Positions 13,100 through 32,000 of a DNA stretch of 32,000 bases are shown here, piece by piece. The notes under the pieces are model-generated. The model was given only the letters and a program-made list of their open reading frames with translations, searched no databases and was not told where the DNA came from. Position 1 is the stretch's first letter, and every line of letters starts with the position of its first letter. The stretch is taken from contig JANQMZ010000007.1 in NCBI GenBank assembly GCA_028279805.1, positions 540,001-572,000 on the forward strand. The letters run 5' to 3'. This DNA is from an archaeon (GTDB taxonomy: Archaea; Iainarchaeota; Iainarchaeia; Iainarchaeales; JANQMZ01). A program made the translations under genes and the position numbers.

Positions 13100-14104
13100 T
13101 TAATCCGTTTCAATTGTGAGTTTTTTCTGCTTTAAATCTATTTTTTTCACATAATTTGTTTTATACATAATTTCTTTTTGGCTTTTTTTGCCAACATTCT
13201 GCTTCACAGTATTTATGTCCTGCTGTATTTTTGCATAATTTGAATAAATTGCCTGCGCTTTTTGCTCTAATTCTTTGCTTTTTTTTAACGAATTTTTTAA
13301 TGATTTTTTTTGCATTTCAAGAGTTCTTTTTAATGCTTCAATTTTTTTGTTTTCTTCAGGTTCTTGTTCTGACATGATAAGATTTTTTGCAAGAGTTTCA
13401 TCAATTTTTTCATTCAAAGATTTTGCGGGAATAACTGAATAAATTTTTTGTAAAAAATTTAAAATTTTTTTCAGCTGTAAATCGTTTAACTCTGAAGCTT
13501 TGATGTTTTTTTCTATTTTTGACTGTTTGAATGCTTTTTCACAATATTCCGGTGCTGTGTTAAATTCGGATATTAGTGTTCTTATTGAATCTTTTTTTGA
13601 TTTTTGAAATGCTTGTTTGAATTCTTTAAAATTTGTTTTTAAAATGTTTAAACCTCTTGCGGGCGGAAACCTGTATTTTTCTCCTTTTTTTAAAGAACGG
13701 TGTGCCCATGTTCTTGCATTAAATGCCCGTAAAATTTCTTTTTTTTTGTCTGTGAAAACAATGTTTCCTTTTCCAAAAAATTCTAAAAACAGAAAAAAGT
13801 TTTCAAATTCTATTACTGCAATTCTTTCAAGTTCATGTTGTTCAAATTTTTTAATTTTTTTGTTAAACAAGTGTTTTTTTAAAAAAGAAGAAAAGCCGGA
13901 GGGGTTTTGCCGGGCTTCCATTTTGTATGCTGTTATAAAAAAAGCATTAGGAGTTATTATGAGATTTTTTCCTCCTTTTTTTGTCTGAATTTTTATTTTA
14001 ATCCAGTTGTTTGGAAGTTTTTGAATTTTGTTTAAAAAAGAATTTTCAACCAAAGGCTTTAATTCCAGAATTAATTGTTTTATTTCCAGATTTGTCAGCT
14101 GCAT
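13100..14104 (-). CDS. NFACT-N domain protein (Rqc2/NEMF/FbpA family), short form without NFACT-R
   Basis: 334 aa. N-terminus: MQLTNLEIKQLILELKPLVENSFLNKIQKL...LIITPNAFFITAYK..PSGFSSFLKKHLFNKKIKKFEQHELERIAVIEFEN..LFLEFFGKGNIVFTD. A K/E coiled coil follows, and I saw no DUF814/NFACT-R-like segment. Confidence 0.6.
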   Translation of the reverse strand: MQLTNLEIKQLILELKPLVENSFLNKIQKLPNNWIKIKIQTKKGGKNLIITPNAFFITAYKMEARQNPSGFSSFLKKHLFNKKIKKFEQHELERIAVIEFENFFLFLEFFGKGNIVFTDKKKEILRAFNARTWAHRSLKKGEKYRFPPARGLNILKTNFKEFKQAFQKSKKDSIRTLISEFNTAPEYCEKAFKQSKIEKNIKASELNDLQLKKILNFLQKIYSVIPAKSLNEKIDETLAKNLIMSEQEPEENKKIEALKRTLEMQKKSLKNSLKKSKELEQKAQAIYSNYAKIQQDINTVKQNVGKKSQKEIMYKTNYVKKIDLKQKKLTIETD

Positions 14105-14126
14105 AACTGTAAAAGAATCAAATTTG

Positions 14127-14570
14127 TTATATTTTTAGCGGTTCTTCTTTAACTGTTCTTAAAACAAGCCTTGTTTGTGTTCTGTCCACAAATTCAAATG
14201 TCTGAATTTTTTTGATCACATTGTCTAATTCTTTTCTTGATTTAAATCTTGCCAAAACAACTGCATCAAAGTGCCCTGCAGTATCATACAATGCAAAAAC
14301 ATTGGGAATTTTTGAAATTTTGGCTTCCATTTGGGGAATTCGCCCTCCTTTGAATCTGATGTCAATAACCGTTGTCAATTCATACCCCAGTTTTTCATAA
14401 TCCAGTTCGACTGAAAAATTTTTAATCAGGCCCTGTTTAAGCATTTTGTGAATTCTGTGAAAAACAGTGTTTGTTGAAATTTTTGATTTTTTGGCAAGCT
14501 GTTTGTAGGATAAGCGGGAATTCTGAATTAATCTGTTTAAAATTTCCGAATCAATTTTATCAATATTCAA
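14127..14570 (-). CDS. Lrp/AsnC family transcriptional regulator
   Basis: HTH: IDSEILNRLIQNSRLSYKQLAKKSKISTNTVFHRIHKMLKQGLI, plus a RAM-like C-terminus. I place the start at TTG 14570 (AGGTG + T6 + TTG). The ORF-track GTG at 14579 is part of the SD. Confidence 0.85.
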   Translation of the reverse strand: MNIDKIDSEILNRLIQNSRLSYKQLAKKSKISTNTVFHRIHKMLKQGLIKNFSVELDYEKLGYELTTVIDIRFKGGRIPQMEAKISKIPNVFALYDTAGHFDAVVLARFKSRKELDNVIKKIQTFEFVDRTQTRLVLRTVKEEPLKI

Positions 14571-14738
14571 AAAAAACACCTAAAATTTTTAATATTTTTA
14601 AAACAAATTTACTATTTTTTGTGATAAATTAATGTTTTAAACCTATTTTTTCAAATATTTTCCTAAAAATTTTTCAAAAATTTTATTAATATTGAATTCT
14701 TTTGTCTGTGAATTGATTTTTTTTAAAGGGGGAATTTT

Positions 14739-16070
14739 ATGGGAGTAAAGGAAATTTTATCAAAAGCAAAAAAAGACAAAATAAGAATAGTGGAACTGCA
14801 TTTCACTGACATTCATGGAATGATTAAAAGTGTTACAATTCCGGTTGAAAAGCTTAAAACAGCTCTGGAAAGAGGAGTGTGGTTTGACGGTTCAAGCATT
14901 GAAGGTTTTACAAGAATAGCTGAAAGTGACATGTACTTAAAGCCGGATATGGATACCTATGCGGTTGTTCCGTGGAAAACTGAAACCAAAACATGCAGAT
15001 TTATTTGTGATATTTATACGCCTGATGACAAGCCTTTCAAAGGAGATCCGAGGCATATTTTAAAACTGGCAATTGAAAAAGCAAAAAAAATGGGTTATGG
15101 TTATTTTGTCGGGCCCGAACTGGAATTTTTTTTGTTCCAGTCAAACGGAGATAAAACAAAACCGGCTTTGCATGATTCAGGAGCATATTTTGATTATTCT
15201 CCGAGGGATCTGGCTACAGAAATAAGAAACCAGATTGTTTTTGCATTAAAAGAATTTGGTTTGGATGTTGAAATGCTGCATCATGAAGTTGCCCCGGGGC
15301 AGCATGAAATTGATTTCAGGTACGGTGACGCTTTAAAAACAGCTGACAATGCCATTACTTTGAAATATGTTGTGAAAAGCATTGCACATGCAAACGGTTT
15401 GCATGCAACTTTTATGGCCAAACCGGTTTTTGGCGAAAACGGTTCCGGAATGCATGTTCATCAAAGCTTGTTTGACTTGAAAAAGAAAAAAAATGCTTTT
15501 TATGATCCGAAGGATTCGTATTTTTTGTCAAAGATTGCCAAAAGTTTTATTGCAGGGCAACTGAAACATATTAAGGCAATGACTGCGGTTATTGCTCCCA
15601 CGGTCAATTCTTATAAAAGGCTTGTGCCGGGATATGAGGCTCCTGTTTATATTTGCTGGGCTACAAAAAACAGGTCAGCTTTAATCCGGGTTCCCAGATT
15701 TTTCAAAGGACAGGGAGCTTCAGCAAGATGTGAATTAAGATGTGGCGACCCCTCCTCAAATCCTTATCTTGCTTTTGCGGTAATGCTGGAATCAGGGCTG
15801 GATGGAATGAAAAACAAAATGGTTCCTCCAAAGCCGACAGAGGAAGATGTTTACGAGTTTTCGGAAAAAGAATTGACTCATAAAAAAATTGACACATTGC
15901 CAAAATCTTTGGGAGGGGCAATACATGAGCTTAAAAGGGATAAAGTGGTTTTGGATGCATTGGGGGAACATGCAGGCCCTTTGTATGTCAGGGCAAAAAA
16001 GAAAGAATTTTTGGATTACAGCATGCAGGTAACAGAATGGGAAAAAGAAAAATATTTTGAAAGTGTTTAA
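14739..16070 (+). CDS. glnA: glutamine synthetase, type I
   Basis: 443 aa. Motifs: FTDIHG, GSSIEGF, GPELEFFLF, HHEVAPGQHEIDF, KPVFGENGSGMHVHQSL, NSYKRLVPGYEAP. SD AGGGGGAA lies 6 nt upstream. Confidence 0.95.
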   Translation: MGVKEILSKAKKDKIRIVELHFTDIHGMIKSVTIPVEKLKTALERGVWFDGSSIEGFTRIAESDMYLKPDMDTYAVVPWKTETKTCRFICDIYTPDDKPFKGDPRHILKLAIEKAKKMGYGYFVGPELEFFLFQSNGDKTKPALHDSGAYFDYSPRDLATEIRNQIVFALKEFGLDVEMLHHEVAPGQHEIDFRYGDALKTADNAITLKYVVKSIAHANGLHATFMAKPVFGENGSGMHVHQSLFDLKKKKNAFYDPKDSYFLSKIAKSFIAGQLKHIKAMTAVIAPTVNSYKRLVPGYEAPVYICWATKNRSALIRVPRFFKGQGASARCELRCGDPSSNPYLAFAVMLESGLDGMKNKMVPPKPTEEDVYEFSEKELTHKKIDTLPKSLGGAIHELKRDKVVLDALGEHAGPLYVRAKKKEFLDYSMQVTEWEKEKYFESV

Positions 16071-18711: not shown

Positions 18712-19047
18712 TTATGATTGTTTAATTTGAGCCGCTTTTTCAAACAGTTTCCCTGCTTTTTCTTTTTCATTTAATTCTGAAAAAATTGTTGCAGCTCTTT
18801 CAAAAAAATCAGCAGCTGCTTCTTTATAATCCTGATTCAAATGCGTTTCAGCTATGTCCTCAAACATTTTTGCGCCTTCCTTTCTCTTGGTAAAACTGTT
18901 ATTGGATTTTCCCAAACGAATTGCGTTTTCTATGTCGGAATGGGTTTCTGCAATTGTTCTTATTGTTGGCCTGGTTGACGCTGGTTTTTGACCTGAATGT
19001 ATTCCTTTGCTTATATGCCTTTCACTTGGTTTCGGACCTTTTCCCAT
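18712..19047 (-). CDS. small hypothetical helical protein (IAETH-repeat, TPR/SNAP-like tail)
   Basis: 111 aa. A basic G/P/K-rich N-terminus is followed by RTIAETHSDIENAIRLG and EDIAETHLNQDYKEAAADFFERAATIFSEL..AGKLFEKAA. SD AAGGTG + T5 + ATG. Confidence 0.5.
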   Translation of the reverse strand: MGKGPKPSERHISKGIHSGQKPASTRPTIRTIAETHSDIENAIRLGKSNNSFTKRKEGAKMFEDIAETHLNQDYKEAAADFFERAATIFSELNEKEKAGKLFEKAAQIKQS

Positions 19048-19148: not shown

Positions 19149-20060
19149 ATGTTGGATGTTTTATGCATTGGAAATGTTACATTAGATGTTTTCATTGAAT
19201 TAGATAAACGCTTTAAAAAAGGCAAAAAACTTGTTTTTGATGAAGGAACCAAGATTGAAGCTAAAAGCATTAAATATGAAACCGGCGGCGGGGCAAACAA
19301 TTCAGCTGTTGCTTTAAAAAAATTAAACTGCAAAACAGGAATTTTTTCAATTGTGGGAAAAGACAAAAGCGCTCCTGTGATTCTGGACGAATTAAAAAAA
19401 AGCAAAATTAACACTGAACTGATTTTAAAAGACAAAAAACTGAAAACAAGTTATTCTGCAATTTTAACCGGTGCAAACGACAGAGTAATTTTAACCCATT
19501 CTGGGGCGATTAAAAAAATTAACAAAGTAATTTTGCCTTTAAACAAAATGAAAGCAAAATGGTTTCACATCAGTTCTTTTCATGTTCCGCCAAAAGCTTT
19601 AAGCAAAATAATAAATTTTGGCTATAAAAACAAAATAAAAATTGCATGGAATCCCGGCAACACAGAATTAAAACAGGGATTAAAAAAATTAAAACCTTTG
19701 TTAAAAAAAACAAATGTTTTGTTTTTAAATAAAAAAGAATCAGAAATTTTAACAAAAGAAAAAAATGTAAAAAAAGCATTAGAAAAACTTGGAAAGTTTT
19801 GTAAAATTGTTGTAATAACTTTGGGCAAAAATGGAGCAATTGCTTTTTCTGATGGAAACTTTTTTATCGGAAAAACTAAAAAAATTAAAAAACTGGATTC
19901 AACTGGTGCGGGGGATGCTTTTAATTCTGCTTTTAATGCGGCTTTAATTAAAAACAAATCAATTGACATTGCTTTGAAATGGGGAGTTAAAAACGCTCAA
20001 AGTGTTATCAGGTTTATTGGTGCAAAAAACAGGCTTTTAACATTAAAAGAAATTAAATAA
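19149..20060 (+). CDS. PfkB-family carbohydrate/nucleoside kinase (ribokinase-like)
   Basis: 303 aa. MLDVLCIGNVTLDVF.., GGGANNSAVAL, and the C-terminal DSTGAGDAFNSAF signature. Confidence 0.8.
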   Translation: MLDVLCIGNVTLDVFIELDKRFKKGKKLVFDEGTKIEAKSIKYETGGGANNSAVALKKLNCKTGIFSIVGKDKSAPVILDELKKSKINTELILKDKKLKTSYSAILTGANDRVILTHSGAIKKINKVILPLNKMKAKWFHISSFHVPPKALSKIINFGYKNKIKIAWNPGNTELKQGLKKLKPLLKKTNVLFLNKKESEILTKEKNVKKALEKLGKFCKIVVITLGKNGAIAFSDGNFFIGKTKKIKKLDSTGAGDAFNSAFNAALIKNKSIDIALKWGVKNAQSVIRFIGAKNRLLTLKEIK

Positions 20061-20852
20061 AAAAATTGAATTCAAAAGGTTTAACAAAAAAAGCAAAACA
20101 GTCCTTTGTTTAAACCATAAAACACCTGAAGCAAAAGCAAGTTTTGGCTCAATCTGAACAGTAAAAGAATGTTTTTTTGAATTGCTTAAAGCCAGAATTT
20201 CAAGCTTTTCTGAATTTGCAGGAATTTTAACAAAAAAATTAACAATTTTTCTTGCCCTGGGCTGAACAGTTGTCTGGGTTGAAAAAAATATGTCCTGATT
20301 TTGAGGTGCAAAAATAAACATTTCCTGAATTTCATCAGTTCTGTTGGCAATGCTTAAAGAACCTGATACAACATTTTCCTTTAAGCCTGAAGGATGCTTA
20401 ACAACAGAAAAAAGCATGCTTCCCGTTTCATCAAAAAAAACAGGTTTCATTGAAAAATTTTCAGAATAATTTAATTTTTTTGAAATTGTTTTATTTTCAT
20501 TAAAATAGTCAACAGTTAAAAGTAATGAAACTGAACTGTCTGAAAAAAAAGATTTGTCCACAAAAGCACTGATTTTTTGAATATCATTTAATTCTATTAA
20601 TTTTTCAGGCAAAAAAACTGTTTTTTCCTCATTTTCTGATAAAATGTGCAAAACCGGTTTGACAATTGTTACCGTGTTGCCGTTGTTTTTAAGATAAAAA
20701 TCTGTTTGTAAAACATTTTGAACCGGTTCTGAAACTGAAAAATTTTGAACAGAAACATTAAGATTTGTTTTAATGTCAACTTTTATGTTTGCATTTGAAA
20801 AAACATTCAGAAAGAAAAAAACAAAAAACAAAAAAATGAAAATTTTTTTCAT
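20043..20852 (-). CDS. secreted two-module beta-sandwich protein with C-terminal TM anchor
   Basis: I prefer the start at ATG 20852 (MKKIFIFLFFVFFFLNVFS|NAN, with AGGT 7 nt upstream) over the track start at 20915. The C-terminal hydrophobic end is VLLFLLNLLNSIFLFNFF. The gene lies 4 nt after the upstream gene's stop. Confidence 0.6.
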   Translation of the reverse strand: MKKIFIFLFFVFFFLNVFSNANIKVDIKTNLNVSVQNFSVSEPVQNVLQTDFYLKNNGNTVTIVKPVLHILSENEEKTVFLPEKLIELNDIQKISAFVDKSFFSDSSVSLLLTVDYFNENKTISKKLNYSENFSMKPVFFDETGSMLFSVVKHPSGLKENVVSGSLSIANRTDEIQEMFIFAPQNQDIFFSTQTTVQPRARKIVNFFVKIPANSEKLEILALSNSKKHSFTVQIEPKLAFASGVLWFKQRTVLLFLLNLLNSIFLFNFF

Positions 20853-20856
20853 AAAA

Positions 20857-21252
20857 TTACCTGCATTTAACAAATACAAAAACATTTCCCAAATAATGCT
20901 TTTTCCGGGCATCAAAAGGAACCTTTAATGTTATTTCAAATTCTTCTGATTCAAAACTTTTAATTGTTTTGGGGTCGGGAACAAAAAGCCATCTGGAAGC
21001 TTCTCCATCCGAAGAGAGGCTGAAAGAACATGTTTTTTCATTGGTGTTTGTTAAAGTTAAAAATCTTGTAACACTTGAACCCGGGCCGACAGAACCAAAA
21101 TTTAAAGCATTAGTATCAACATTTGGCCCGATATCATGGGGTTCAACAACATTAAAATTGTATGAAATCGTTTCAGAGGGTTTGGAAAGACAGCCTGAAA
21201 ACATTAAAAAAAATGAAAAAATTATTACAATAACGGCTTTTTTGGCAACCAT
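20857..21252 (-). CDS. small lipobox-type surface protein with single PapD/MSP/ASH-like beta-sandwich
   Basis: 131 aa. The signal ends in MFSGC. The pattern LNFGSVGPGSSVTRFLTLTNTNEKTCSFSLS...WLFVPDPKTIKSFESEEFEITLKVPFD is typical of ASH/PapD-like Ig folds. Confidence 0.55.
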   Translation of the reverse strand: MVAKKAVIVIIFSFFLMFSGCLSKPSETISYNFNVVEPHDIGPNVDTNALNFGSVGPGSSVTRFLTLTNTNEKTCSFSLSSDGEASRWLFVPDPKTIKSFESEEFEITLKVPFDARKKHYLGNVFVFVKCR

Positions 21253-21291
21253 AAAACCTAAAATTGTTCAAAAAAGCTTTAATTAATACTC

Positions 21292-22329
21292 TTAAATTAA
21301 GAATCCTAGAATTCTTCTCAAAAAATGGATAATCAGAAAAATTGATGCCAGTGAAAAAACAGAAAAAACAATCGGAGGCAGGTTGAAAGGAGCGTTGTCC
21401 TGCAAAGGCAAATAAATGCATTCCCCGTCAAAACAACTTAATCCCGGGCCGCAGGGAGTCAAGTTAGGGACAATTTTATGAATGCAGTTTCCGAAAGAAC
21501 ATGAATCTGTTGTACAAAGGTTTGAATCATCACAGTTAACATTTGTGCATAAAATTTTGTTAATAAGATTTTCATCAAAAACAAATTCTTTCATTGTAGC
21601 AGGCAAAACGTTTTCCAGCAACAATTTTTCATCAATTTTTTGTTCAATAAAATATTTTATTTCAAGCTTTTCTTTTGGTTTAACATTTTCAATTCTGAAT
21701 CCGAAAAAATCGTCAAGCAAAAAAAGTTTTTTATCTGCTTTAACTTTATAAATGTTAATAAAAGATTCAAGTTTTTCAGCTATTTCTATTTTGCCGGTGT
21801 TTTTGTTTGAAAAATTTGACAATGTTAAGGAAAAAATAGTTTTGTAAGATTTTGTTCCGGAATCATCAGTTTCAATAATTTTAATATTTTTTAAAAGAGT
21901 TAAACTGTTTTCAGAATCAATTGTTCTTGCAATTCCGTGAACAAAAGGAATTTCAATTTGTTCAAACAAATTCAAAAGATTTTCATAGGGAAGCGATTTT
22001 GAAACATTGTGGTCAAAAATAATATTCATATCCGGAATACTTTCATCTATTTCGGGAAAAACCAAAAGGCACTGGCATGAAAAGCATTCATAATTTTCAG
22101 AACACTGATTGTCAAACTCGCATTCCTCTTTTTGGTTAATGTAGCCGTTGCCGCACAAATATCTTTTGATTATGGCATAACTTGCATCCGGAGTTGAAGT
22201 TGTATCACCTGACCCTGAAGCTGAATCGTTTATTTCAATGGTTACAGAGCCCGAATCGCTGGATTCTGCAAAAACAGAGGGAACAAGCAAAAAAATGCTT
22301 AAAATTAAAAAAAATTTAAAAAATTTCAT
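21292..22329 (-). CDS. Cys-rich surface protein with C-terminal TM anchor; N-terminus shares the ESSDxGxVxxEIN motif
   Basis: 345 aa. Signal: MKFFKFFLILSIFLLVPSVFA|ESSDSGSVTIEIND. An EGF-like cluster is CGNGYINQKEECEFDNQCSENYECFSCQC. A CxDxNxCTxDxC-type repeat is CTNVNCDDSNLCTTDSCSFGNCIHKIVPNLTPCGPGLSCFDGEC. The C-terminal TM is followed by RRILGFLI. Confidence 0.6.
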   Translation of the reverse strand: MKFFKFFLILSIFLLVPSVFAESSDSGSVTIEINDSASGSGDTTSTPDASYAIIKRYLCGNGYINQKEECEFDNQCSENYECFSCQCLLVFPEIDESIPDMNIIFDHNVSKSLPYENLLNLFEQIEIPFVHGIARTIDSENSLTLLKNIKIIETDDSGTKSYKTIFSLTLSNFSNKNTGKIEIAEKLESFINIYKVKADKKLFLLDDFFGFRIENVKPKEKLEIKYFIEQKIDEKLLLENVLPATMKEFVFDENLINKILCTNVNCDDSNLCTTDSCSFGNCIHKIVPNLTPCGPGLSCFDGECIYLPLQDNAPFNLPPIVFSVFSLASIFLIIHFLRRILGFLI

Positions 22330-22365
22330 TTAAAAATAAAGTTGTGAATTTTTATTAATAAATCT

Positions 22366-24156
22366 TTATTTTTTGGATTTTTCTTTGTTTTTGGCGGATT
22401 TGAGCTTTTCAACTTCTTTCAGTTCTTTTCTAAGGTTTTTCATTACAAGTTCAAAAGATTCTTTGTTTATTTTGCCTTCAATATGCTGTTTTGTCAAACT
22501 GTTTATTCTTGCAAGAATATCATCTTCAACAAGTTTTAACTGTGACTCCGCTTTGTTTGAAACTTTTTTTGTTTTAAGATGTTTTTTTGATTCTTTTTCA
22601 AATTGTTTCTGTGTTGCCTGTGATTCATTTTCATTGATTTCTTTTTCAGGTTTCTGGGATGTTTGACCTGTTTCAATTTGAATTTTAATTTTTTCAAGAA
22701 AAGATTTCTGGGATAAGACAAGCAATAAAAGCTCGTCAATTTTTGAAACATGGTTTGTTACATTGTACAATTGTTTGTAAGTTTTTTGGCTTTTCTTTTT
22801 AATTTTTTTCAAATCTTTTTCCTGTTTTTTCAAAAAAGATTTTATTATTAAAAGAGTTGCAGTTGTTTTGTCTAATTCCAAAATTTTTTCATTTAATTCC
22901 TCAAAGTCAATGAAAGAATTTGGCTCTGCTGGCACAGGCTGGACAACTTTTTTTGGCGAAGGTTTCGGCAATACTGATAATAATTTATTTCTCTGGGTGA
23001 ACAGAATTATCAGCAAAAATAAGAATAATCCTGCCAGAATCAAGTTTGAATCAAAAGAAAAAGGGGATGATTGTGAAACAATGATGTTTGTTTCAAAAAC
23101 TGATGATTCTTCATTAACATTTATTGTTGCCTTAAGCTTGTAAGTTTTTGGCTCAATGTTCTGCAGGTTAAAAAAAGCTTCAAGTGTTTTTATTTCAAAA
23201 GGATCAAAATTTAGTGCATTGGTGCGGTCAGAAACAATTATTTGGCCTGTTTCAATATCAATCAATTGTACATCTGCTGCAACATTTTCAATTGTTTGAC
23301 CCCACTTGCTTTCAGCTTCAATAAAAACATTGTTTATTGTTCCCGCGGTTAAAAACTCGTTTATTATTTTATTAATTTGAACAGTTTTCAAGCCAATCTG
23401 CAGGTTTTGCAAGGACTCAAGTGTTTGCAAATCATCATATAAAACAAGTATTTTTGCTTTATAATTTCCGGAATCATATTCTGAACCGTTAAAAAAAACT
23501 TCAATTGTTCTTATTTCATCAGGGGTAATTTGTTTTTCCTGGTTTGAAAAAATTGTTTCAAGATATTTATCCTTAAAATCAAAAATGTCAATTTTTGTTT
23601 TAGCATTGTTAATTGTTTCAAGCCCGAGGTTCCAGAAATCCACTGAAAATTTTACCTGTCCTGCGTCAAGAGAATCATTTATTCTTATTGAACGAATCTC
23701 CCCGAATTTTCCCGGAAAAGGTGAAACAACAAAAACCTGAAACAAAGAAACACTTTTTGTTCCGATTCCTTCACCCGGTTTTGTTTGAGGTTCAACTCTT
23801 AGTGTAGCGCGGTGTTTTCCGGATTCAAATTCTTCAGGCATGTTAATAGTGTAAAAAACTTTGATTCTTTCCCTGGGCTTTAACTCAAAACTTTTCACAT
23901 CCAAATTAATGTATTGCCCCAAATCGGAAACATAACCGCTGAAGCCGCCGACACGCTGGTTGGTATCAGGAACAACTGAAACATTAATTGTTCTGGTTTC
24001 ATTGGTTCTTGAAACAATTTCAAAAAAATTTGACTTGGCTTCTCCTGATTCAAAATCAACATAATGCAAACCGGGAGAAATTCCATAATTAAAGGAGAAT
24101 ACATTTAAGGATAAAATTATTAAAAAAATTGCAACAAAAAAAAATTTTTTAAACAA
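22366..24156 (-). CDS. bitopic surface protein: signal peptide, three CARDB/NEW3-like beta-sandwich modules, TM, ~200-aa cytoplasmic K/E coiled coil
   Basis: 596 aa. A TTG start is preceded by AGGGGCGA. The ectodomain includes ..RTINVSVVPD..LKPRERIKVFYTINMPEEFESGKHRATLRVE.. The TM LILAGLFLFLLIILF lies near aa 375. The tail is rich in K, E and Q. Confidence 0.6.
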   Translation of the reverse strand: MFKKFFFVAIFLIILSLNVFSFNYGISPGLHYVDFESGEAKSNFFEIVSRTNETRTINVSVVPDTNQRVGGFSGYVSDLGQYINLDVKSFELKPRERIKVFYTINMPEEFESGKHRATLRVEPQTKPGEGIGTKSVSLFQVFVVSPFPGKFGEIRSIRINDSLDAGQVKFSVDFWNLGLETINNAKTKIDIFDFKDKYLETIFSNQEKQITPDEIRTIEVFFNGSEYDSGNYKAKILVLYDDLQTLESLQNLQIGLKTVQINKIINEFLTAGTINNVFIEAESKWGQTIENVAADVQLIDIETGQIIVSDRTNALNFDPFEIKTLEAFFNLQNIEPKTYKLKATINVNEESSVFETNIIVSQSSPFSFDSNLILAGLFLFLLIILFTQRNKLLSVLPKPSPKKVVQPVPAEPNSFIDFEELNEKILELDKTTATLLIIKSFLKKQEKDLKKIKKKSQKTYKQLYNVTNHVSKIDELLLLVLSQKSFLEKIKIQIETGQTSQKPEKEINENESQATQKQFEKESKKHLKTKKVSNKAESQLKLVEDDILARINSLTKQHIEGKINKESFELVMKNLRKELKEVEKLKSAKNKEKSKK

Positions 24157-24284
24157 TTATGATTCGCCCCTTTGTGCTTTGAGAATAGAAAGAATGAAAT
24201 AGCTTATAATTTTAACCAAAACAATAAAAACATTTAAATAGTGAAAATATCATAAAATACTGATTAAAACAGGGGAACACTATT

Positions 24285-24869
24285 ATGAACAAAAAGATTC
24301 TGTTGCTGGGAGTCACAATTCTTATTATTCTGGGAATAATTGTGCCATACGCCATTTCAGAATCATCTGATACGGGAACAGTTAATGTTGAAATTAATGC
24401 AACCGTTACAATAGATGTTGATAATAGTCCGATGGCTTTTGCTTTGGATCCGGGGCTTGGAGACCAGAACGGGTCAAGCGACATACCTTTTAGAATTGTG
24501 AATACAGGCTCAGTTGATATTGATGTTTCAACATGTGCAGGACGTTTGCACTGGAAAGCGGATGCCAATGACACAAATTATTACAGGTGGATGATGGACC
24601 AGAATGAAGCAAGTTCCTGTACAAGCATTAGAGGCGGCATAAGTGACAAAAACTGGGTTGACTTTAACATAACAGACACTTCAGATGCAAGCGGGACTGT
24701 TTGCACAGGATTACAGTTTGAAAACTCAACTGATTCAATAAATGTTGGAATTTTTATAAGCTCTCCTTCAGGAGAACCTGACACAACAAGTTTGTCATCA
24801 ACTGTTACATTTTATGTTGCACAGGATTCAGGTGCCGGAGACCAGTCACTGCAAGCTAATTGTAATTAA
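24285..24869 (+). CDS. small secreted, unanchored protein; candidate fibre subunit (TasA/camelysin-like by analogy only)
   Basis: 194 aa. SD AGGGGAA. Signal: MNKKILLLGVTILIILGIIVPYAIS|ESSDTGTVNVEINATVTIDVDNSP. The protein is Ser/Thr/Asp/Asn-rich with several N-x-S/T sequons, 4 Cys and no TM anchor. Confidence 0.6.
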   Translation: MNKKILLLGVTILIILGIIVPYAISESSDTGTVNVEINATVTIDVDNSPMAFALDPGLGDQNGSSDIPFRIVNTGSVDIDVSTCAGRLHWKADANDTNYYRWMMDQNEASSCTSIRGGISDKNWVDFNITDTSDASGTVCTGLQFENSTDSINVGIFISSPSGEPDTTSLSSTVTFYVAQDSGAGDQSLQANCN

Positions 24870-26036: not shown

Positions 26037-26447
26037 TTGATTATTATGCCCTTACATCCTTTTGGCGGAAGACGTCCTGTTAATATTGGGGAACGAGCAT
26101 ACAATCCTGCTTTTAAAGGTGTTCCAAAAACAAGCCTGCCTTATTTGAGATTATCAATTGGACGCATAAACAAAGGACTGAAAACCGGAACCGGTGATTA
26201 TCTGAATCATGGCTCACACGGATTATTACAAATAGCAGAAACCTGTGAAAAAGCTGCAAAACATGAAGAGGCAAAAGGAAATGATGCAGAAGCTGCAAAA
26301 TATCAAGAAAAAGCAATAGCCTTGCGTAAAGAAGCAGCTGATTTTCTTATGCAGGCTGGCCGAACTAAAAGAGCGGTTAGTGCCTTGAAAAAAGCCGGAA
26401 TTGAAAACCCTGAAGAATTTCTAAGGCAGGAAGGCTGGAATATTTAA
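26037..26447 (+). CDS. small hypothetical helical protein related to the 18712-19047 product
   Basis: 136 aa from a TTG. ATG at 26046 (MPLHPFGG...) is an equally plausible, possibly leaderless, start. A basic G/P-rich N-terminus is followed by LLQIAETCEKAAKHEEAKGNDAEAAKYQEKAIALRKEAADFL. The gene ends 45 nt upstream of the first pilin gene. Confidence 0.5.
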   Translation: MIIMPLHPFGGRRPVNIGERAYNPAFKGVPKTSLPYLRLSIGRINKGLKTGTGDYLNHGSHGLLQIAETCEKAAKHEEAKGNDAEAAKYQEKAIALRKEAADFLMQAGRTKRAVSALKKAGIENPEEFLRQEGWNI

Positions 26448-26492: not shown

Positions 26493-26900
26493 ATGATTTT
26501 AAACAAAAAAGGGCAGTCATCAGTTGAATACTTAACAACAGTCGGAGTAATTTTAACATTTGTAGCAATTTTGGCGGGTTATGCAACTGTTAATTATGGG
26601 GAATCAACAAAATTTGCACAGGTTAACACTTCCTTGAGTAAGTTAAAAAATTCTGCTGAAAGTGTTTATGCTTTCGGACCCGGGAACAGGGAAAAGGTTA
26701 GAATTGTTTTGCCAACAGGAACAACGGGAAGCAATGTTCAGGGCAACACAATTTCTTTTGATATTGGTTTTATTGGGGGAATCCAAACTGTTGACACTCA
26801 AATTGATGTAAATGTTTCAGGAGTATTGCCTTCAAGTGACGGAATTCATTTTGTTCTGGTTGAAGCAATGGATGGTAATGCAGTTTTTTCAGGTGGTTAA
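26493..26900 (+). CDS. minor pilin-like protein 1 (class III signal peptide, Q+1/E+5)
   Basis: 135 aa. MILNKKG|QSSVEYLTTVGVILTFVAILAGYA is followed by a beta-rich domain. The stop abuts the next ATG (TAAATG). Confidence 0.75.
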   Translation: MILNKKGQSSVEYLTTVGVILTFVAILAGYATVNYGESTKFAQVNTSLSKLKNSAESVYAFGPGNREKVRIVLPTGTTGSNVQGNTISFDIGFIGGIQTVDTQIDVNVSGVLPSSDGIHFVLVEAMDGNAVFSGG

Positions 26901-27257
26901 ATGAAAGGCCAGATAAGCGTTGAAACTTTTTTGGCAGTAGGCGCTTTATTGTTATTTTTTGTAATTGTTTCACTGGCTGCAAACAACCAGAATGTTCAGT
27001 CAACAGTTATTGATGACAGGTTGCAGGAAGAAAATTCCTGCCAGAGAATTGCAAAAATTGCGGCAGCATTATTTTCAACAGACGGGGATGCAAGAATAAC
27101 AACTCATTCAAATCATGATGTTCAGTTTTTGGATAATCTGGTTTTAACATCTAACACTTTTTGCAATTCAACTGCAAAATTAATTGATTCAAATGCTTCA
27201 AAAGGAACAATTGAATTGTTTAAAGATGATTCAGGAGTTGTTGTAAGAAATGCGTGA
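26901..27257 (+). CDS. minor pilin-like protein 2 (class III signal peptide, Q+1/E+5)
   Basis: 118 aa. MKG|QISVETFLAVGALLLFFVIVSLA. It overlaps the next gene by 8 nt (ATGCGTGA). Confidence 0.7.
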   Translation: MKGQISVETFLAVGALLLFFVIVSLAANNQNVQSTVIDDRLQEENSCQRIAKIAAALFSTDGDARITTHSNHDVQFLDNLVLTSNTFCNSTAKLIDSNASKGTIELFKDDSGVVVRNA

Positions 27258-27726
27258 AAAAGGCCAAACGGTTTCATACGATTTGCTTATAGCGGTTTTG
27301 CTGTTTTTGTTATTAATGCAGACAATGCAGTTTTTATGGACTGATTCACTGCAAGGCAATCTGGACCAGCAGGGAATTATTACCATGAGGGAATTGGCTT
27401 CAAATGTTTCTGAAACATTAATCAAAAGCCAGGGTTTTCCAAGAGAATGGAATTCTGCAAATGTTGAAACAATTGGTCTGGCGCAGAGGCCAAGTGTTTT
27501 AAGTGTTGATAAAGTAAGAGAATTCGGATTAATTGACCATAATCAGGCAAGAATTTTACTGGCTTTATCACAGTATGATTTCTTTTTTGAATTAGATTCT
27601 GTTTTGAATGAGTTGGATGTAAACGTTGGCAACGCAGTTCCGGATACAGGCGAATTGGCTGTTGTTTCAAGAAATGTTATTTATGGAGGAGAAAATGCAA
27701 ATGCAAAACTTTACATTTTTGAATAA
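27250..27726 (+). CDS. minor pilin-like protein 3 (class III signal peptide, Q+1, D+6)
   Basis: 158 aa. MREKG|QTVSYDLLIAVLLFLLLMQTMQF. Confidence 0.7.
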   Translation: MREKGQTVSYDLLIAVLLFLLLMQTMQFLWTDSLQGNLDQQGIITMRELASNVSETLIKSQGFPREWNSANVETIGLAQRPSVLSVDKVREFGLIDHNQARILLALSQYDFFFELDSVLNELDVNVGNAVPDTGELAVVSRNVIYGGENANAKLYIFE

Positions 27727-30019
27727 AAAAGGTTTTGTGTTTTTATTTGAATTATTAATAGCAATAGGCTTGGCTACAGCTTTTTTAAATGTTGCAAGTT
27801 TTCAGGAACTGGAAACAGGTGAATTGTTAACAAAAATTCAGGAAAAACAAAGATCAACAGATATTCTGACTACGTTAGACGAAAACGGTTTTTTGCTGCA
27901 AAAACTTGATGAAAATGCTTCAGCGGATGACAAAATGCTGGATATTTATAATGAAATTTTAAGGCAGCTTCCTGAAACGGTTAATGCAAGAATTGAATTG
28001 GATTTTTTTGATGTTGACACAGCGGACTGTAAAACAAATGAATCATTTGAATCATGTTTTAACAAAATTGAAGGAACTTACAATCCGCAAGGTCCTGAGT
28101 TACCAAATGATAAAAGTGTTACAGCTGAAACGCTGATTTTGGTTAAAAAACAGCCACCCCAATTATGTGAAGTTGTTCAGCCTCCGACATTTCAGGAAAA
28201 AGAAACTGAAGAAAGCTTGCTAACCAAAACTCCTTTAAAAATTTATTTTTCTGAAGAAGAAAAAATTGCAAAACCTTTGAAATTATTTTTTTCCCATCAG
28301 GAAGGTCATGATGCAAATGTAATATTTGATTTGAATACGACACCGGAAACTTCATTACAGTGCGGTGAAAATTTAAGATTTGATTTGGGCGCAAAAGTAA
28401 TTGATTTTGGAAGGAATCCTGTGGACATAATGCTTGTGCAGGACCGTTCCGGTTCAATGGATGAATTCACGGTAAACCTGCAGACACTGGCAAGCGGAGC
28501 ATTTAATGATGGCACAAGACAATGCGGTTTTTTGTGCTTGTCCTGCACTCCGACAAACTGGCAAAATTTGGCACAATTTGATTTAACTTCAGGGCAGGAT
28601 TATGCGGTTAAAATGGTTGACCATAACCATTCAGGTGCAAGGCCATGTTTGTTTGCTTCAACACCCCCATATTTGGAACTGGAAAATCCAAGCGGCAGCC
28701 AGCCAACCAATCGTGATACTGAGGTTATTTTAAGAACACCTTTTGTTTCAGGCACGTATACTGCGTGGGGCTGGAGCCAGGAATGGATTGGCTATGATTT
28801 GAATTTGTATGAAAACAAAATGACAGCTTCTCAAAGGGCTGCTAAAAATTTTGTAGATGATGCTGAATGGAAAGACAATGACAGGCTGGGATTAGTTTCA
28901 TTTGCAGGAAGTTCAGATTTAGATGAACAATTACAATTGGCGGACGACCAGAACAAAGAGGATATTAAAGATGCAATTGATGCATTAAATTCAGGCGGTT
29001 CTACAGCCATAGGAGAAGGAATAGATGAAGCAACAGATGAATTATTGGGAACACGGTTTGAAGAAACTCATACAAAGTTTCAGATTGTTTTATCTGACGG
29101 GCAAAACAATTCAGGCACTGACCCTCTGGATGCCGCTCAAAGAGCAGCTGATGAAAACATTGTTATTTACACAATTGCTTTTGGCCAGGACGCAGACCAG
29201 GATACTTTAAGGGAAATAGCTGAAATTACTGACGGAAATTTTTATTATGCTGATGAAGATGAAAATGCTTTGGATGACATTTATGATGTAATTCGTGATG
29301 ACATTGGAAACAGGGCCGGTGGAAAAGACAGCTGGGCTTATGATGCAAATTTAACTGTTCCGGTTAACATGGGAGCAGATGTTATTAGTACGGGAACCGG
29401 CGGAGTTTTACAGGAAAGTGTTGACAGGAATTACATTTTTTATGACATTGGTGACATTAGTCCTTCAAGTCCCTGGAATGATTTTTTTACAATTAATTAT
29501 CCTTGTGACAGGGATTTGACTTGCAGTGTTAAATCAATTCATTTTCCTGAAGAGCCTTTTTATCTGGAATATGATAATCAGGATGGTTCTCCTGGAAATC
29601 CTTTAATCTGGGATGAAAATGCTGATTTGAATTTTGAATATCGTGACTTGACTGTTGACATTTTAAGCGCTAAAATTGTAGCGGCAAAAACCGTGTTTTT
29701 GGATGTAAATGCCATAAATTCCGGGCATTTGAATACAAGTCAGACAACAATGGATTTTTATCTGGATGACCCTGAAACCGGGACTTTTTTGAAACAAACT
29801 GTTGTACCGGCAATGTGTGGACAACTGGGTTCTGGCTGTAGTAATTATTTTACATTGTTTTTGGATGAACTGGTTGAAGAGGAAGGATTTATTTATGTAA
29901 TAATTGACAATGAGGATAATGTTGCTGAATGCCCCGGAAACAATGTTGCTGAAATTTTTTGTTCAACAGGCCCGAAAACACAGTATTTTGTTTTAAAGTT
30001 GTGGACGTGGCCAAAGTGA
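27701..30019 (+). CDS. modular pilin-like adhesin: class III signal peptide + helical/linker region + vWA domain (complete MIDAS, ~115-aa insertion) + CARDB-like C-terminal domain
   Basis: The ORF is open from 27626. I prefer ATG 27701 (GGAGGAG 9 nt upstream), which gives MQNFTFLNKKG|FVFLFELLIAIGLATAFL. MIDAS residues are DRSGS at 28442-28456, GGST at 28994-29005 and SDG around 29093-29101. The vWA tail is IVIYTIAFGQDADQDTLREIAEITDGNFYYA. The CARDB-like region (about 29644-29960) ends in DNEDNVAECPGNNVAE. Confidence 0.8.
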   Translation: MQNFTFLNKKGFVFLFELLIAIGLATAFLNVASFQELETGELLTKIQEKQRSTDILTTLDENGFLLQKLDENASADDKMLDIYNEILRQLPETVNARIELDFFDVDTADCKTNESFESCFNKIEGTYNPQGPELPNDKSVTAETLILVKKQPPQLCEVVQPPTFQEKETEESLLTKTPLKIYFSEEEKIAKPLKLFFSHQEGHDANVIFDLNTTPETSLQCGENLRFDLGAKVIDFGRNPVDIMLVQDRSGSMDEFTVNLQTLASGAFNDGTRQCGFLCLSCTPTNWQNLAQFDLTSGQDYAVKMVDHNHSGARPCLFASTPPYLELENPSGSQPTNRDTEVILRTPFVSGTYTAWGWSQEWIGYDLNLYENKMTASQRAAKNFVDDAEWKDNDRLGLVSFAGSSDLDEQLQLADDQNKEDIKDAIDALNSGGSTAIGEGIDEATDELLGTRFEETHTKFQIVLSDGQNNSGTDPLDAAQRAADENIVIYTIAFGQDADQDTLREIAEITDGNFYYADEDENALDDIYDVIRDDIGNRAGGKDSWAYDANLTVPVNMGADVISTGTGGVLQESVDRNYIFYDIGDISPSSPWNDFFTINYPCDRDLTCSVKSIHFPEEPFYLEYDNQDGSPGNPLIWDENADLNFEYRDLTVDILSAKIVAAKTVFLDVNAINSGHLNTSQTTMDFYLDDPETGTFLKQTVVPAMCGQLGSGCSNYFTLFLDELVEEEGFIYVIIDNEDNVAECPGNNVAEIFCSTGPKTQYFVLKLWTWPK

Positions 30020-30978
30020 ATCAGAAAGGAATAATGTTCAGCTTAATGGTTTTGATTATGATTTTGTCTGTAATTGCTTTACAGGATGTTTTCAGGGAAT
30101 CAAAAATTGCACAGCAAAGAAATCCTGAAAAAACAAGAATTTTTTCGGTTAATGAAAAATATGAAAACATTAACAGGAACATTGTTGACCTGTTTAAAGA
30201 GGATTATTTGAGGGAGGTTAGCCAGAGAAATTTGCCTTTTAATTATTTAATTGACGGAAACAAAATAAAATTTAATCATTCAATTCCGTGGGATAAGGGC
30301 ACAATTGAAAATTATTTTGACACAATTAACACTTACAGAATTTTTATTTCTGATAAAAATTATTCAAATGCTTTTGACGGAATTTTTACACAGGTGGAAA
30401 CTTTGCAGAATAGTGAATGGGGCGGAACAGCAACTGATACACATTTTTTAATTCAGCCATTCTGCACAAATTTTGAAACAGGAGACTTAAACAGGGCAAG
30501 AATAACAGAATCTTTTGCAAGCCAGTGCTTAAATTCTTTTGATGAAAATAAGATGCGCAGGTTTGATGTTGACATTGTTGTAAGGAATTCAAATGAAGAT
30601 TTTAATTCAGTTTTTTGTTCAAACGGCTGTTCTTCTCAAAATTTTAATCCTTCAAATTCAAATCCTTATTACAGGCTTGTAATTGATGACACCAAATGTT
30701 CTTCCAAATGCAATTTAAGCCAGACTGTTTTCAGTAAACATTTTTTGGCTGATGACAATGAAACAATTATTTTGTCCGGAGCAGCGTCAAAACCTTTGAG
30801 AATCAGGTTTATGAACGGCGTATTAGTTCAGAGAAACGGTGATTTTTTTGTAGATTCAAACATTCAGGTTCAGTTTGATCAAAATATTAGTGATTTGTTT
30901 TTTCTGGATTTTAATTTTACTTTAACTGAACCTGATTTTAATATTGTTAAAACAAATAATCCGCAAAAACTGAATTAA
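30016..30978 (+). CDS. large pilin-like protein lacking an acidic residue in the N-terminal helix (cap-type candidate)
   Basis: GTG at 30016 overlaps the upstream TGA (GTGA) and gives (M)NQKG|IMFSLMVLIMILSVIAL. The alternative ATG 30034 would give a plain TM anchor. About 320 aa with 8 Cys. The track start at 29959 lies inside the upstream gene. Confidence 0.6.
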   Translation: MNQKGIMFSLMVLIMILSVIALQDVFRESKIAQQRNPEKTRIFSVNEKYENINRNIVDLFKEDYLREVSQRNLPFNYLIDGNKIKFNHSIPWDKGTIENYFDTINTYRIFISDKNYSNAFDGIFTQVETLQNSEWGGTATDTHFLIQPFCTNFETGDLNRARITESFASQCLNSFDENKMRRFDVDIVVRNSNEDFNSVFCSNGCSSQNFNPSNSNPYYRLVIDDTKCSSKCNLSQTVFSKHFLADDNETIILSGAASKPLRIRFMNGVLVQRNGDFFVDSNIQVQFDQNISDLFFLDFNFTLTEPDFNIVKTNNPQKLN

Positions 30979-31021
30979 AGATATTTTTCTTTTTATAACA
31001 AAATAACCCATTTAAGTTAAG

Positions 31022-31029
31022 TTTATAAA
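31022..31029 (+). promoter_or_regulatory. TATA-box candidate (TTTATAAA) for the major pilin gene
   Basis: This is the only strong TATA-like element in the 126-bp gap. It lies ~76-83 nt upstream of the ATG, implying a ~50-nt leader with SD GGAGGG at 31094-31099. Confidence 0.4.
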
Positions 31030-31059
31030 GGATTTAAAGCCTAAGATACTAAAATTTAG

Positions 31060-31073
31060 ACTCTCATGAGAGT
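31060..31073. promoter_or_regulatory. 14-bp perfect palindrome ACTCTCATGAGAGT in the predicted pilin leader
   Basis: It is centred ~40 nt downstream of the TATA candidate. It could be an operator or a 5'-UTR hairpin. Confidence 0.4.
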
Positions 31074-31104
31074 TTTACTCTAAAAAAAATTACGGAGGGA
31101 TTAA

Positions 31105-31533
31105 ATGAACAAAAAAGGACAGTCCGCAATTGAATACCTGATGACATACGGTTGGGCTTTGATTGTAATTGCAATTGTTGTCGGAATTCTGGTGTTTGTA
31201 TTAAGCAACACGTCAGGAGGAGCAACATGCCAGTCAAGAAGCCAGAAAATTATTCTGAAAGAATACGCAGTTGATCCTGATACTGTTGCTTTGGGAATGC
31301 AAAACGCAACAGGTTCTGATATGACCAGTATAACCTACGCAGGAGCCGGTGACTTTGGAGGAACAGGTTCAACAGCAGGAACAATTACAAGCGGAAGCGA
31401 GTTTACTGTAACAACCAATAACTTGACCGGGCCGGGTGCCGGTGAGTTTACAGACGGTGTTGTAACAATAACCTATAGTACAAGTTTGTTAACAAATCAA
31501 GACGTTAACATTGTTTGCAGCGGATCACTTTAA
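31105..31533 (+). CDS. major type IV pilin candidate (class III signal peptide, Q+1/E+5)
   Basis: 142 aa. MNKKG|QSAIEYLMTYGWALIVIAIVVGILVFVL. The globular part is Gly/Thr/Ser-rich. There are three sequons (NTS, NAT, NLT) and two Cys (C42, C138). It has its own promoter, a strong SD and a terminator. Confidence 0.8.
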   Translation: MNKKGQSAIEYLMTYGWALIVIAIVVGILVFVLSNTSGGATCQSRSQKIILKEYAVDPDTVALGMQNATGSDMTSITYAGAGDFGGTGSTAGTITSGSEFTVTTNNLTGPGAGEFTDGVVTITYSTSLLTNQDVNIVCSGSL

Positions 31534-31570
31534 GTGAATTAATCCGCTCTTTTTCTTTTTTTTATTTTTT
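31520..31570 (+). terminator. imperfect hairpin (GCGGAT...ATCCGC) followed by T4, T8 and T7 tracts
   Basis: The stem pairs 31520-31525 with 31542-31547 and spans the pilin stop. Oligo-T runs lie at 31551-31571 (archaeal oligo-T termination signal). Confidence 0.5.
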
Positions 31571-32000
31571 TATAACAAGCCTGAGGCAACTCCGCCTAAT
31601 GCCTGTCCCATTAATAATCTGATTCCGAAAAAAACAACAAAAGCAATAACCAGCATTACCGGAATATATTTTACTCCGTCAAGCTCTTTTCCGGAATTGA
31701 TTACTCCTAAAACAAGTGAAGAAAAAATAACAGTAACAATTAATGCAATTTGAGCAAAAAACAAAATAAATGCAGGTTCAATTGCACTTGCCGGGGTTCC
31801 CACCAAGCCTGTTACGCCAATTGCGCTTCCTGAAGCACGTGAAGTGAAATCCTGAGGCAAACTGATATCCTGTGTCTGTTCTGTTATTGATTCAACAATA
31901 ATTGTTGACAATCCTAACAATGCGGGCGCGCCTATGGCTGCAGCAAAAAAAATCATTAAAACATACAGTGAAACGTTTGCATGAATTTCATGTCTAAGCT
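31570..32000 (-). CDS. C-terminal part of a polytopic membrane protein, FlaJ/TadC/PilC-like pilus platform candidate (gene runs off the right edge)
   Basis: The track gives 128 aa from M at 31956, but the frame stays open to 32000 (..LRHEIHANVSLYVLMIFFAAAIG..). There are at least 3 TM helices separated by a loop. It is convergent with the major pilin. The family call rests mainly on context. Confidence 0.45.
   Translation of the reverse strand, partial: LRHEIHANVSLYVLMIFFAAAIGAPALLGLSTIIVESITEQTQDISLPQDFTSRASGSAIGVTGLVGTPASAIEPAFILFFAQIALIVTVIFSSLVLGVINSGKELDGVKYIPVMLVIAFVVFFGIRLLMGQALGGVASGLL

Follow-up and report, generated by a model that had tools for sequence, protein, structure and literature searches.

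Bases 26493 to 32000 of the 32-kb stretch of archaeal DNA analysed here (hereafter the window; contig JANQMZ010000007.1) form one arm of what is probably a complete archaeal type IV pilus cluster, building a sticky-tipped attachment filament. That the locus belongs to the type IV pili in the first place is close to certain. It comprises a translationally coupled operon of five different proteins with class III signals (w1 to w5), a separately transcribed gene for a PilA-like major pilin (w6), and a convergent operon for a FlaI/TadA-type ATPase and a split TadB/TadC-like platform.

We surveyed the 63 open reading frames (ORFs) of at least 80 amino acids (aa) in the window. Six consecutive plus-strand genes between 26493 and 31533 each begin with a short basic leader, a Gly and about 20 hydrophobic residues, and such N-termini occur in no others (6/63). 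An independent gene call on the source contig returned the same six starts, and all six N-termini read as quoted in a preliminary description of this DNA. The signal-peptide check proposed there was run as a FlaFind-like rule, which requires a [KRS][GA] pair no further than 30 residues from the start and, after it, 20 residues whose mean Kyte-Doolittle hydropathy is at least 1.5. The rule selected five of the six genes and nothing else among the 63 ORFs; w4 escaped only because its longest ORF begins 25 codons too early. Six genes of this signal type in a row on one strand are far beyond chance. The four gene junctions described earlier are likewise exact in the sequence. The start of w2 abuts the stop of w1 (TAAATG, 26898-26903), w2 and w3 overlap by 8 nt (ATGCGTGA, 27250-27257), the ATG of w4 lies inside w3 with an overlap of 26 nt (27701-27726), and w4 and w5 share GTGA at 30016-30019. 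This layout points to translational coupling from w1 to w5.

Table 1 Features of the pilus locus and of one neighbouring gene, in window coordinates (↓, predicted cleavage site)
Feature	Position	Strand	Remarks
w1, minor pilin-like protein, 135 aa	26493-26900	+	MILNKKG↓QSSVEYL; first gene of five-gene operon
w2, minor pilin-like protein, 118 aa	26901-27257	+	MKG↓QISVETF
w3, minor pilin-like protein, 158 aa	27250-27726	+	MREKG↓QTVSYDL
w4, modular vWA pilin, 772 aa	27701-30019	+	..NKKG↓FVFLFEL, Glu at +6
w5, large pilin-like protein, 320 aa	30016-30978	+	GTG start; ..NQKG↓IMFSLMV
Putative own promoter and ribosome-binding site of w6	31024-31104	+	TTTATAAA; GGAGGG
w6, predicted major pilin, 142 aa	31105-31533	+	MNKKG↓QSAIEYLMTYGWALIVIAIV (MNKKG↓QSAIEYL), Glu at +5
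Platform gene F2, 3' part (337 aa in full, T2SSF)	31570 to beyond 32000	-	convergent on w6
Transglutaminase-like/CEP76-peptidase-like protein, 195 aa	25299-25886	-	no signal peptide; Pfam PF24656 E 4e-07, PF04473 E 2e-05

The class III signal sequence motif, with predicted cleavage after Gly, is present in all six proteins and kept in their orthologues. The acidic position is Glu at +5 in w1, w2 and w6, Asp at +6 in w3 and Glu/Asp at +6 in w4, and w5 has none within its first 18; the signature of each pilin-like family is constant in all orthologues examined. Orthologues of w1 come first in each of 9 other loci and share G↓Q..xEY, while those of w2 stand second in related loci with ([GA])↓Q.S.E, and those of w3 stand third, with Asp at +6 in all. 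When compared with the major-pilin family by hhalign, w1 matched with 96.5% probability over its N-terminal 33 residues only. By this alignment, w1 and the major pilin are homologous over the leader plus alpha-1N segment and no further. None of the three small proteins matched Pfam at E up to 1 or any pilin family in NCBIfam, where w1 gave three chance-level non-pilin matches (E 0.05-0.27). At least five of the protein families that the locus defines are without any Pfam or NCBIfam model.

The pattern of w6 is that expected of the fibre subunit. Its own TATA box, strong Shine-Dalgarno sequence and terminator, as listed in the preliminary description, were all recovered: a TATA-like TTTATAAA stands about 75 nt upstream, GGAGGG lies 7 nt before the ATG, and the stop codon is followed by three T-runs of 5 to 8, with the T-rich terminator at 31550-31571. 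Across 7 orthologues the N-terminal ~35 residues are nearly invariant and the remaining head domain is variable; the head contains two Cys, of which C138 is invariant, and a conserved N-A-T sequon. These proteins are 141-154 aa long and have a C-terminal domain. Because w6 has its own expression signals, a near-invariant alpha-1N and a variable head, and because its gene is duplicated in tandem in one related locus (L009), it would fit a fibre subunit. Pfam and NCBIfam gave nothing meaningful for w6, and a PDB sequence search gave chance matches only.

The largest product of the operon, w4, carries a domain of the von Willebrand factor A (vWA) type (Pfam PF00092, E 1.1e-25, residues 373-529). 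The Pfam scan added a weak CARDB match, and NCBIfam returned BatA-like vWA models (E 1.5e-14, residues 369-530), all far under their cut-offs. An alternative start, an ATG at 27695, lies six bases upstream of the one in Table 1 and nearer to a GGAGGAG motif. The AlphaFold 2 (AF2) model of w4 was built from a 17-sequence alignment and has a mean predicted local distance difference test (pLDDT) score of 79. Its N-terminal module consists of a helix of 52 residues (10-61) and a small alpha/beta unit (strands 94-159; pLDDT ~75-90). This is followed by the vWA region (~241-540), in which a beta-sandwich insert (258-371) sits directly after the DxSxS of the metal ion-dependent adhesion site (MIDAS), and by two C-terminal beta-sandwich domains (546-771). 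The MIDAS is complete (D248-x-S250-x-S252, T435, D466), with the same residues in P0002, a homologue of 37% identity. In wider alignments, D248, S250 and S252 are invariant (A4), and S250 and S252 are nearly so in A3. As modelled, w4 combines a pilin-like module at the N-terminus with a vWA domain, in which the MIDAS is complete, and with beta-sandwich domains. The vWA pilin of the preliminary description is thus supported, both by a genuine Pfam domain and by a model that joins a pilin-like module to an adhesin module.

A Foldseek search of the PDB with the w4 model returned at the top the sortase-pilus proteins SpaC, PitA and RrgA, the type V pilus protein Mfa5 and Streptococcus sanguinis PilB; the alignment with PilB (7B7P, 7BA2) spans ~440 columns at E 1.7e-7. 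The best fold matches of the modelled protein are thus pilus-tip adhesins. Two other assignments were considered for w4 and rejected. A Bat-like aerotolerance operon was dismissed because there is no MoxR or DUF58 gene and the BatA match spans the vWA domain only, and an ArnB-type cytoplasmic vWA regulator because w4 contains an N-terminal membrane/signal segment, 14 Cys and 8 N-glycosylation sequons.

A word-indexed protein search found only one full-length relative of w4 (37% identity) and one of w5. This reflects a limit of sensitivity and not rarity, since an exhaustive HMMER search with a two-sequence profile found 165 cluster representatives of the w4 family at E 1e-30 or better. Several dozen of these matches cover the N-terminal module and/or the vWA domain plus a 250-residue C-terminal region, and the members inspected start with ([KSR])([GA])↓F(V/A)F(S/T)L(E/D). 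The site right after the MIDAS is occupied by one to many beta-sandwich repeats, by LVIVD beta-propeller repeats or by concanavalin A (ConA)-like lectin domains. Because relatives of w4 hold different modules at this one site, module swapping there may change ligand specificity. LVIVD or ConA-like (Laminin_G_3) inserts after DxSGSM were seen in P0022, P0023, P0028, P0036 and P0041, proteins of up to 2207 aa, and the pairing of vWA with a propeller in such relatives is reminiscent of PilY1 and integrins.

The last gene of the operon encodes the candidate cap subunit. The first 18 mature residues of w5 include neither Glu nor Asp, and Glu/Asp at +5/+6 is absent throughout alignments of 8 and of 12 sequences, in both of which six Cys are invariant (C150, C171, C201, C205, C228 and C232). 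Pfam gave chance-level matches only, and NCBIfam none. The cap-like pilin proposed earlier is consistent with this, as w5 alone of the locus lacks the acidic residue, in the way a cap subunit would. The absence of Glu5 was reportedly described for GspK by Korotkov and Hol in 2008, and an acid-less subunit is said to be the hallmark of that protein.

The preliminary description also noted a convergent polytopic membrane ORF leaving the window; this is the 3' part of F2, a 337-aa T2SSF protein. Past base 32000, where it had suggested looking for an ATPase and the rest of a FlaJ/TadC-like gene, a T2SSE gene and two T2SSF genes are indeed found. Upstream of F2 on the minus strand lie the genes for F1 (294 aa, T2SSF), for a 505-aa ATPase (Pfam T2SSE, E 7.5e-32) and for a 429-aa Lys-rich protein. 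The two platform proteins match T2SSF in Pfam at E 1e-15 (F1) and 1e-13 (F2). In NCBIfam, F1 aligns to positions 5-248 of the 555 of FlaJ, and F2 to positions 304-443 of the 484 of UpsF. Since F1 corresponds to the N-terminal half of FlaJ/UpsF and F2 to the C-terminal half, the platform is split over two genes in the fashion of TadB/TadC. Searched against the PDB, the ATPase matched Archaeoglobus fulgidus GspE2 best (2OAP, E 9e-64), followed by FlaI and, after it, by CpaF of the Tad system (E 5e-47); at E 1e-10 or better, neither PilB nor GspE of bacteria was among the matches. Its NCBIfam scores were 284 bits for FlaI (cut-off 550), 183 for TadA TIGR03819 (cut-off 373) and 49.8 for PilB TIGR02538 (cut-off 676); every NCBIfam match falls under its family cut-off. 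By these similarities the motor appears to belong to the archaeal/Tad lineage and not to that of type IVa pili (T4aP).

The Lys-rich protein represents an accessory component, so far uncharacterised, of pili of this kind. Its gene (13882-15171, minus strand, of the source-contig segment L001; window coordinate = L001 coordinate + 21104) stands directly upstream of the ATPase gene and overlaps it. The orthologues range from 135 to 673 aa. The N-terminus is Lys-rich and of low complexity, and only a C-terminal domain of ~70 residues is conserved (TDFDKVL...L..GL...YPPFG), which is winged-helix-like with a weak TrmB match (E 0.07).

Scans of GTDB genomes and JGI metagenomes gave eight more related loci (5 in genomes, 3 in metagenomes), of which the metagenome locus L011 is apparently from the same species as L006. 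On the contigs of P0002, the 37%-identical vWA relative, three small genes precede the vWA gene, after which come genes for a 322-aa product, a small Lys-rich protein, the ATPase and two T2SSF proteins, and a w6-like pilin gene is convergent directly after the motor genes. The gene order w1-w2-w3-vWA pilin-w5 recurs in 9 further loci (about 8 distinct). In an all-ORF comparison, the order w1-w5, accessory protein, ATPase, F1, F2 was seen in L002-L004, L006-L010 and L011-L013, as far as the contigs reach, and the five relatives with DNA extending beyond the cluster (L002, L007, L008, L009 and L010) have the major pilin after it. Among the variants are a tandem pair of vWA pilins (L008), a second major pilin (L009) and additional secreted proteins between w5 and the ATPase (L007, L010, L012 and L013). 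The pilin-like proteins are 21-40% identical between loci and the ATPase 63%; that the order is kept despite such low pilin identity suggests selection on a fast-evolving surface apparatus. Relative to L002 and L007-L010, the block of accessory protein, ATPase, F1, F2 and major pilin is inverted in our DNA (window 31105-32000, L001 10001-15171), which places the major pilin of the window after the minor-pilin operon and on its strand, with the motor operon convergent to it. The synteny survey proposed in the preliminary description thus yields five pilin-like families in fixed order with a PilA-like pilin adjacent, in 9 further loci. The DPANN-type host named there agrees with the related loci as well: all four that bear taxon names are metagenome-assembled genomes of Candidatus Diapherotrites (two) or Candidatus Iainarchaeum (two).

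Other readings of the locus have to be weighed against an adhesive pilus. One is a short surface assembly of the pseudopilus or bindosome kind (like Sulfolobus Bas or the pseudopilus of the type II secretion system, T2SS), in which a stalk would hold the vWA protein and w5, with w6 as a minor structural component. With five accessory subunits for a single major one, the ratio is high, as it would be in such an assembly, and archaeal class III signals also occur on non-pilus surface proteins (bioRxiv 10.64898/2026.04.22.720090). The bindosome ATPase BasE does appear in the NCBIfam list of our ATPase (E 3e-37), but its score is far below those of FlaI and TadA. Moreover, a PilA-like pilin is kept beside the cluster in all five relatives with enough DNA, the strong ribosome-binding site, terminator, near-invariant alpha-1N and duplication of w6 form the pattern of a fibre subunit, and no substrate-binding protein or ABC transporter genes lie nearby in the window or source contig. 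We therefore regard a bindosome-like stalk as unlikely.

Still less probable is that the N-termini are uncleaved membrane anchors, which would make w4 a BatA-like tethered vWA protein, the small proteins unrelated bitopic proteins and the adjacency of the motor incidental. The BatA-like models matched by w4 (E 1.5e-14, far under cut-offs) and the lack of a peptidase gene in the examined DNA would fit such anchors. However, the BatA match is limited to the vWA domain (369-530), there is no MoxR, DUF58 or other Bat partner, and the motif [KR]G↓(Q/F/hydrophobic) with an acidic residue at +5/+6 is constant in families that are 21-40% identical elsewhere. The ATPase and platform are linked to the pilin-like genes in all loci, despite the inversion in the window, and the homology between w1 and the major pilin lies exactly over the signal plus alpha-1N. 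An archaellum or other motility filament in place of an adhesive pilus is hardly credible. FlaI is the best NCBIfam model for the ATPase (284 bits), F1 matches ArlJ/FlaJ, and KaiC/FlaH-like ATPase genes are found a few kb away; yet the FlaI score reaches about half of the 550 bits set as cut-off, and among PDB entries the closest is a non-archaellar protein, GspE2 of A. fulgidus. Neither an archaellin domain nor a FlaF/G/X/C/D/E gene was found in the window and source contig, the platform is divided over two genes whereas FlaJ is not, and an adhesin-type vWA subunit suits attachment.

We thus favour an adhesive, sticky-tipped attachment filament as the most likely product of the locus, by analogy with characterised systems. 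Several results weigh against this interpretation. The curated pilin families of Pfam and NCBIfam gave no match to any of the pilin-like proteins. The AF2 model of w5 is of low confidence (pLDDT 57), with an N-terminal helix (3-58) and a better-defined beta region (180-290), and has no fold match in the PDB. No gene for a prepilin peptidase (A24) was detected in the window, in the 10 kb beyond it (42 kb in total) or in the related loci L002-L013; the preliminary description had suggested seeking one past position 32000. The gaps of the related loci hold genes for ABC transporters, secreted proteins and a CorA-like protein, and no A24-like protein. Cleavage of the signals is unproven, because the examined DNA holds no prepilin peptidase gene. 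In addition, the order, stoichiometry and tip location of the subunits are drawn from analogy, and fibre formation and ligand would both be predictions from genes only.

The preliminary description had likened the locus to the bacterial fimU-pilVWXY1E operon. The functional logic of that likeness holds: in the FimU-PilV-PilW-PilX-PilY1-PilE set of T4aP and in GspH-I-J-K of the T2SS, four or five low-abundance pilins are encoded together and one of them lacks Glu5. Homology at the family level does not hold, as Pfam and NCBIfam gave no FimU/PilV/W/X/GspH-K match. Nor can the vWA carrier be equated with PilY1. The PilY1 of Pseudomonas aeruginosa is an adhesin carrying a vWA domain but not a pilin (PMC8179133), and it ends in a C-terminal PilC/PilY1 beta-propeller (IPR008707), whereas w4 is itself a pilin-like protein with C-terminal beta-sandwiches instead of a propeller. 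The LVIVD propellers inside the vWA domain of some w4 relatives belong to a different family than PilC/PilY1. The T4aP systems also use PilB/PilT-type ATPases, in contrast to the FlaI/TadA/archaeal GspE2-like ATPase found here. Because of the ATPase lineage, the split platform and a vWA carrier that is a pilin, the closer comparators are TadE/F/G, S. sanguinis PilA/B/C and the archaeal two-platform systems. The earlier interpretation named the right kind of system, a pilus locus of a DPANN archaeon with several accessory subunits and a vWA adhesin pilin, and erred in its specific family analogy; the tip complex, signal processing and host attachment stay at the level of prediction.

The Tad/Flp pili have in TadE-TadF-TadG (the Kil 'Tip' complexes of Myxococcus, PMC12075869) an operon of class III-signal pilin-like proteins that includes one large modular backbone subunit, with a proposed role in priming and as a customisable tip. 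They also share with our locus a split TadB/TadC platform, an ATPase of the TadA/CpaF-FlaI lineage and a large vWA-bearing subunit, TadG being described as vWA-containing (PMC4858521); the likeness is one of design, with the ATPase under the family cut-off. Unlike the Tad systems, which have two or three such subunits and a short Flp pilin, the present locus has five and a 142-aa PilA-like w6 with a globular head; it lacks TadZ, the secretin and TadD, and its host is an archaeon. At E up to 1, the five proteins gave no match to TadE (PF07811) or Tad (PF13400).

S. sanguinis PilB (PMC8179133; PDB 7B7P) likewise combines a class III signal, a pilin module and a MIDAS-bearing vWA domain in one polypeptide, and is thought to be at the tip with two other minor pilins (PMC8179133). 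It differs in having no detectable sequence homology to w4 outside the vWA domain, and w4 goes beyond it with extra beta-sandwich domains and an insert within the vWA domain. The machinery of S. sanguinis resembles that of T4aP, and that of the present locus is archaeal. The survey of modular pilins in the PilB paper used the bacterial IPR012902 motif and covered bacteria only (PMC8179133).

Within the archaea, the locus most resembles the two-platform systems, namely the type IV filament 'system 1'/Epd of Methanococcus maripaludis and clade 2 of Makarova 2016. Loci of the Epd type and of clades 1/2 have an archaeal ATPase with two platform genes, several G↓Q..E minor pilins, adhesin-like large subunits and a transglutaminase-like neighbour, and some are from DPANN (PMC4858521; bioRxiv 10.64898/2026.04.22.720090). 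Two separate platform genes also occur in clade 2 and in some 4A loci (same sources). The Epd major pilin differs, being ~70 aa without a globular head (arCOG06620), a description that the 141-154 aa of w6 and its orthologues do not fit. The Epd system also has a dedicated peptidase with nine transmembrane segments, EppA, and no EppA gene is present in the examined DNA of this locus. Neither of the two sources describes a vWA pilin; the vWA proteins there are ArnB-type regulators and bacterial TadG. A full-text literature search on vWA pili in DPANN returned nothing relevant. Even so, the locus is not categorically new, as the kind of system is already known.

Among the neighbouring genes, the transglutaminase-like gene (Table 1) has homologues divergent upstream of w1 in 6 loci (L007 5337-6041, L008 7256-8716, L010 7918-8592, L011 4578-5189, L012 5664-6653 and L013 3928-4854). 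Transglutaminase-family peptidases have been linked to archaeal type IV pilus loci (Makarova 2016, PMC4858521), and the protein is possibly associated with the pilus locus here. A functional link is not proven, because the wider synteny around the gene is conserved too, with PGK, CoaD and CoaE nearby. Genes for KaiC/RecA-like ATPases (PF06745, DnaB_C, DUF7125/DUF7504) stand a few kb from the pilus cluster in three genomes (L001 19775-20429, L002 13999-15328 and L009 19432-20762), and KaiC-family regulators are associated with archaeal type IV pilus loci (Makarova 2016, PMC4858521).

Two small, cytoplasmic, weakly tetratricopeptide repeat (TPR)-like proteins are encoded at 26037-26447 (plus strand) and 18712-19047 (minus strand). 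The first of these genes shares the strand of w1 and lies 45 nt upstream of it. It was considered as a pilus component and was rejected in view of the absence of a homologue in the related loci and is probably not part of the pilus system. Shortly before the pilus locus, on both strands of 20043-24869, lie five unannotated secreted or C-terminally anchored proteins with Sec-type signal peptides (290, 131, 345, 596 and 194 aa), one of which has a weak choice-of-anchor D match. Another feature of this group is a Cys-rich protein with 'CGNGY..EEC', comparable to the CGDGIIEDEE.CDG proteins that adjoin the pilus cluster in L002 and L009, and two of the five have the mature start 'ESSD(S/T)G(S/T)V(T/N)(I/V)EIN' in common. 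Further away, at 10263-11540 (plus strand), an unannotated secreted protein of 425 aa with a C-terminal transmembrane anchor and a Lys/Glu-rich tail is a candidate surface protein. Scans for tRNA and Rfam families found no RNA genes in the window.

Taken by analogy with the minor pilins of the T2SS and T4aP, the TadE/F/G tips and S. sanguinis PilA/B/C, assembly might proceed as follows. A prepilin peptidase encoded elsewhere would cut after the Gly, and the five processed minor pilins would join through their N-terminal helices on the platform, forming a priming complex. Its apex would be occupied by w5, a subunit without the acidic residue by which the N-terminus of the next subunit up is neutralised, while w4 would present its vWA/MIDAS and immunoglobulin-like domains as a metal-dependent adhesin. 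The ATPase would then polymerise the 142-aa major pilin under this complex, which would thereby end up at the tip of an adhesive fibre. Minor-pilin priming/tip complexes and modular vWA pilins are documented in bacteria (PMC8179133, PMC12075869, PMC7541494), and on balance we incline to the view that the five minor pilins of the present locus form such a complex.

We put forward more tentatively, as a possibility that we would not yet favour, that Iainarchaeota-type DPANN fixed a five-subunit tip machine independently of bacteria, made up of three small adaptor subunits, an adhesin pilin with a vWA domain and a cap lacking the acidic residue, with the post-MIDAS vWA loop as a hot spot for the exchange of recognition modules. 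The locus would be an archaeal counterpart to TadE/F/G and bears on the proposed archaeal origin of Tad pili; it would also extend to archaea the idea of the 'modular pilin', so far catalogued for bacteria only. The attachment of DPANN archaea to hosts or surfaces is poorly understood, and minor-pilin tip complexes have been worked out in bacteria only. The locus offers a compact, conserved and fully linked set of five predicted minor pilins, a major pilin and a motor, in which w4 stands out as an adhesin candidate, with a metal site open to testing and an insertion point that varies. If the reading as a five-subunit tip machine holds true, the locus would be the determinant of the host cell or surface to which these ultrasmall archaea attach.

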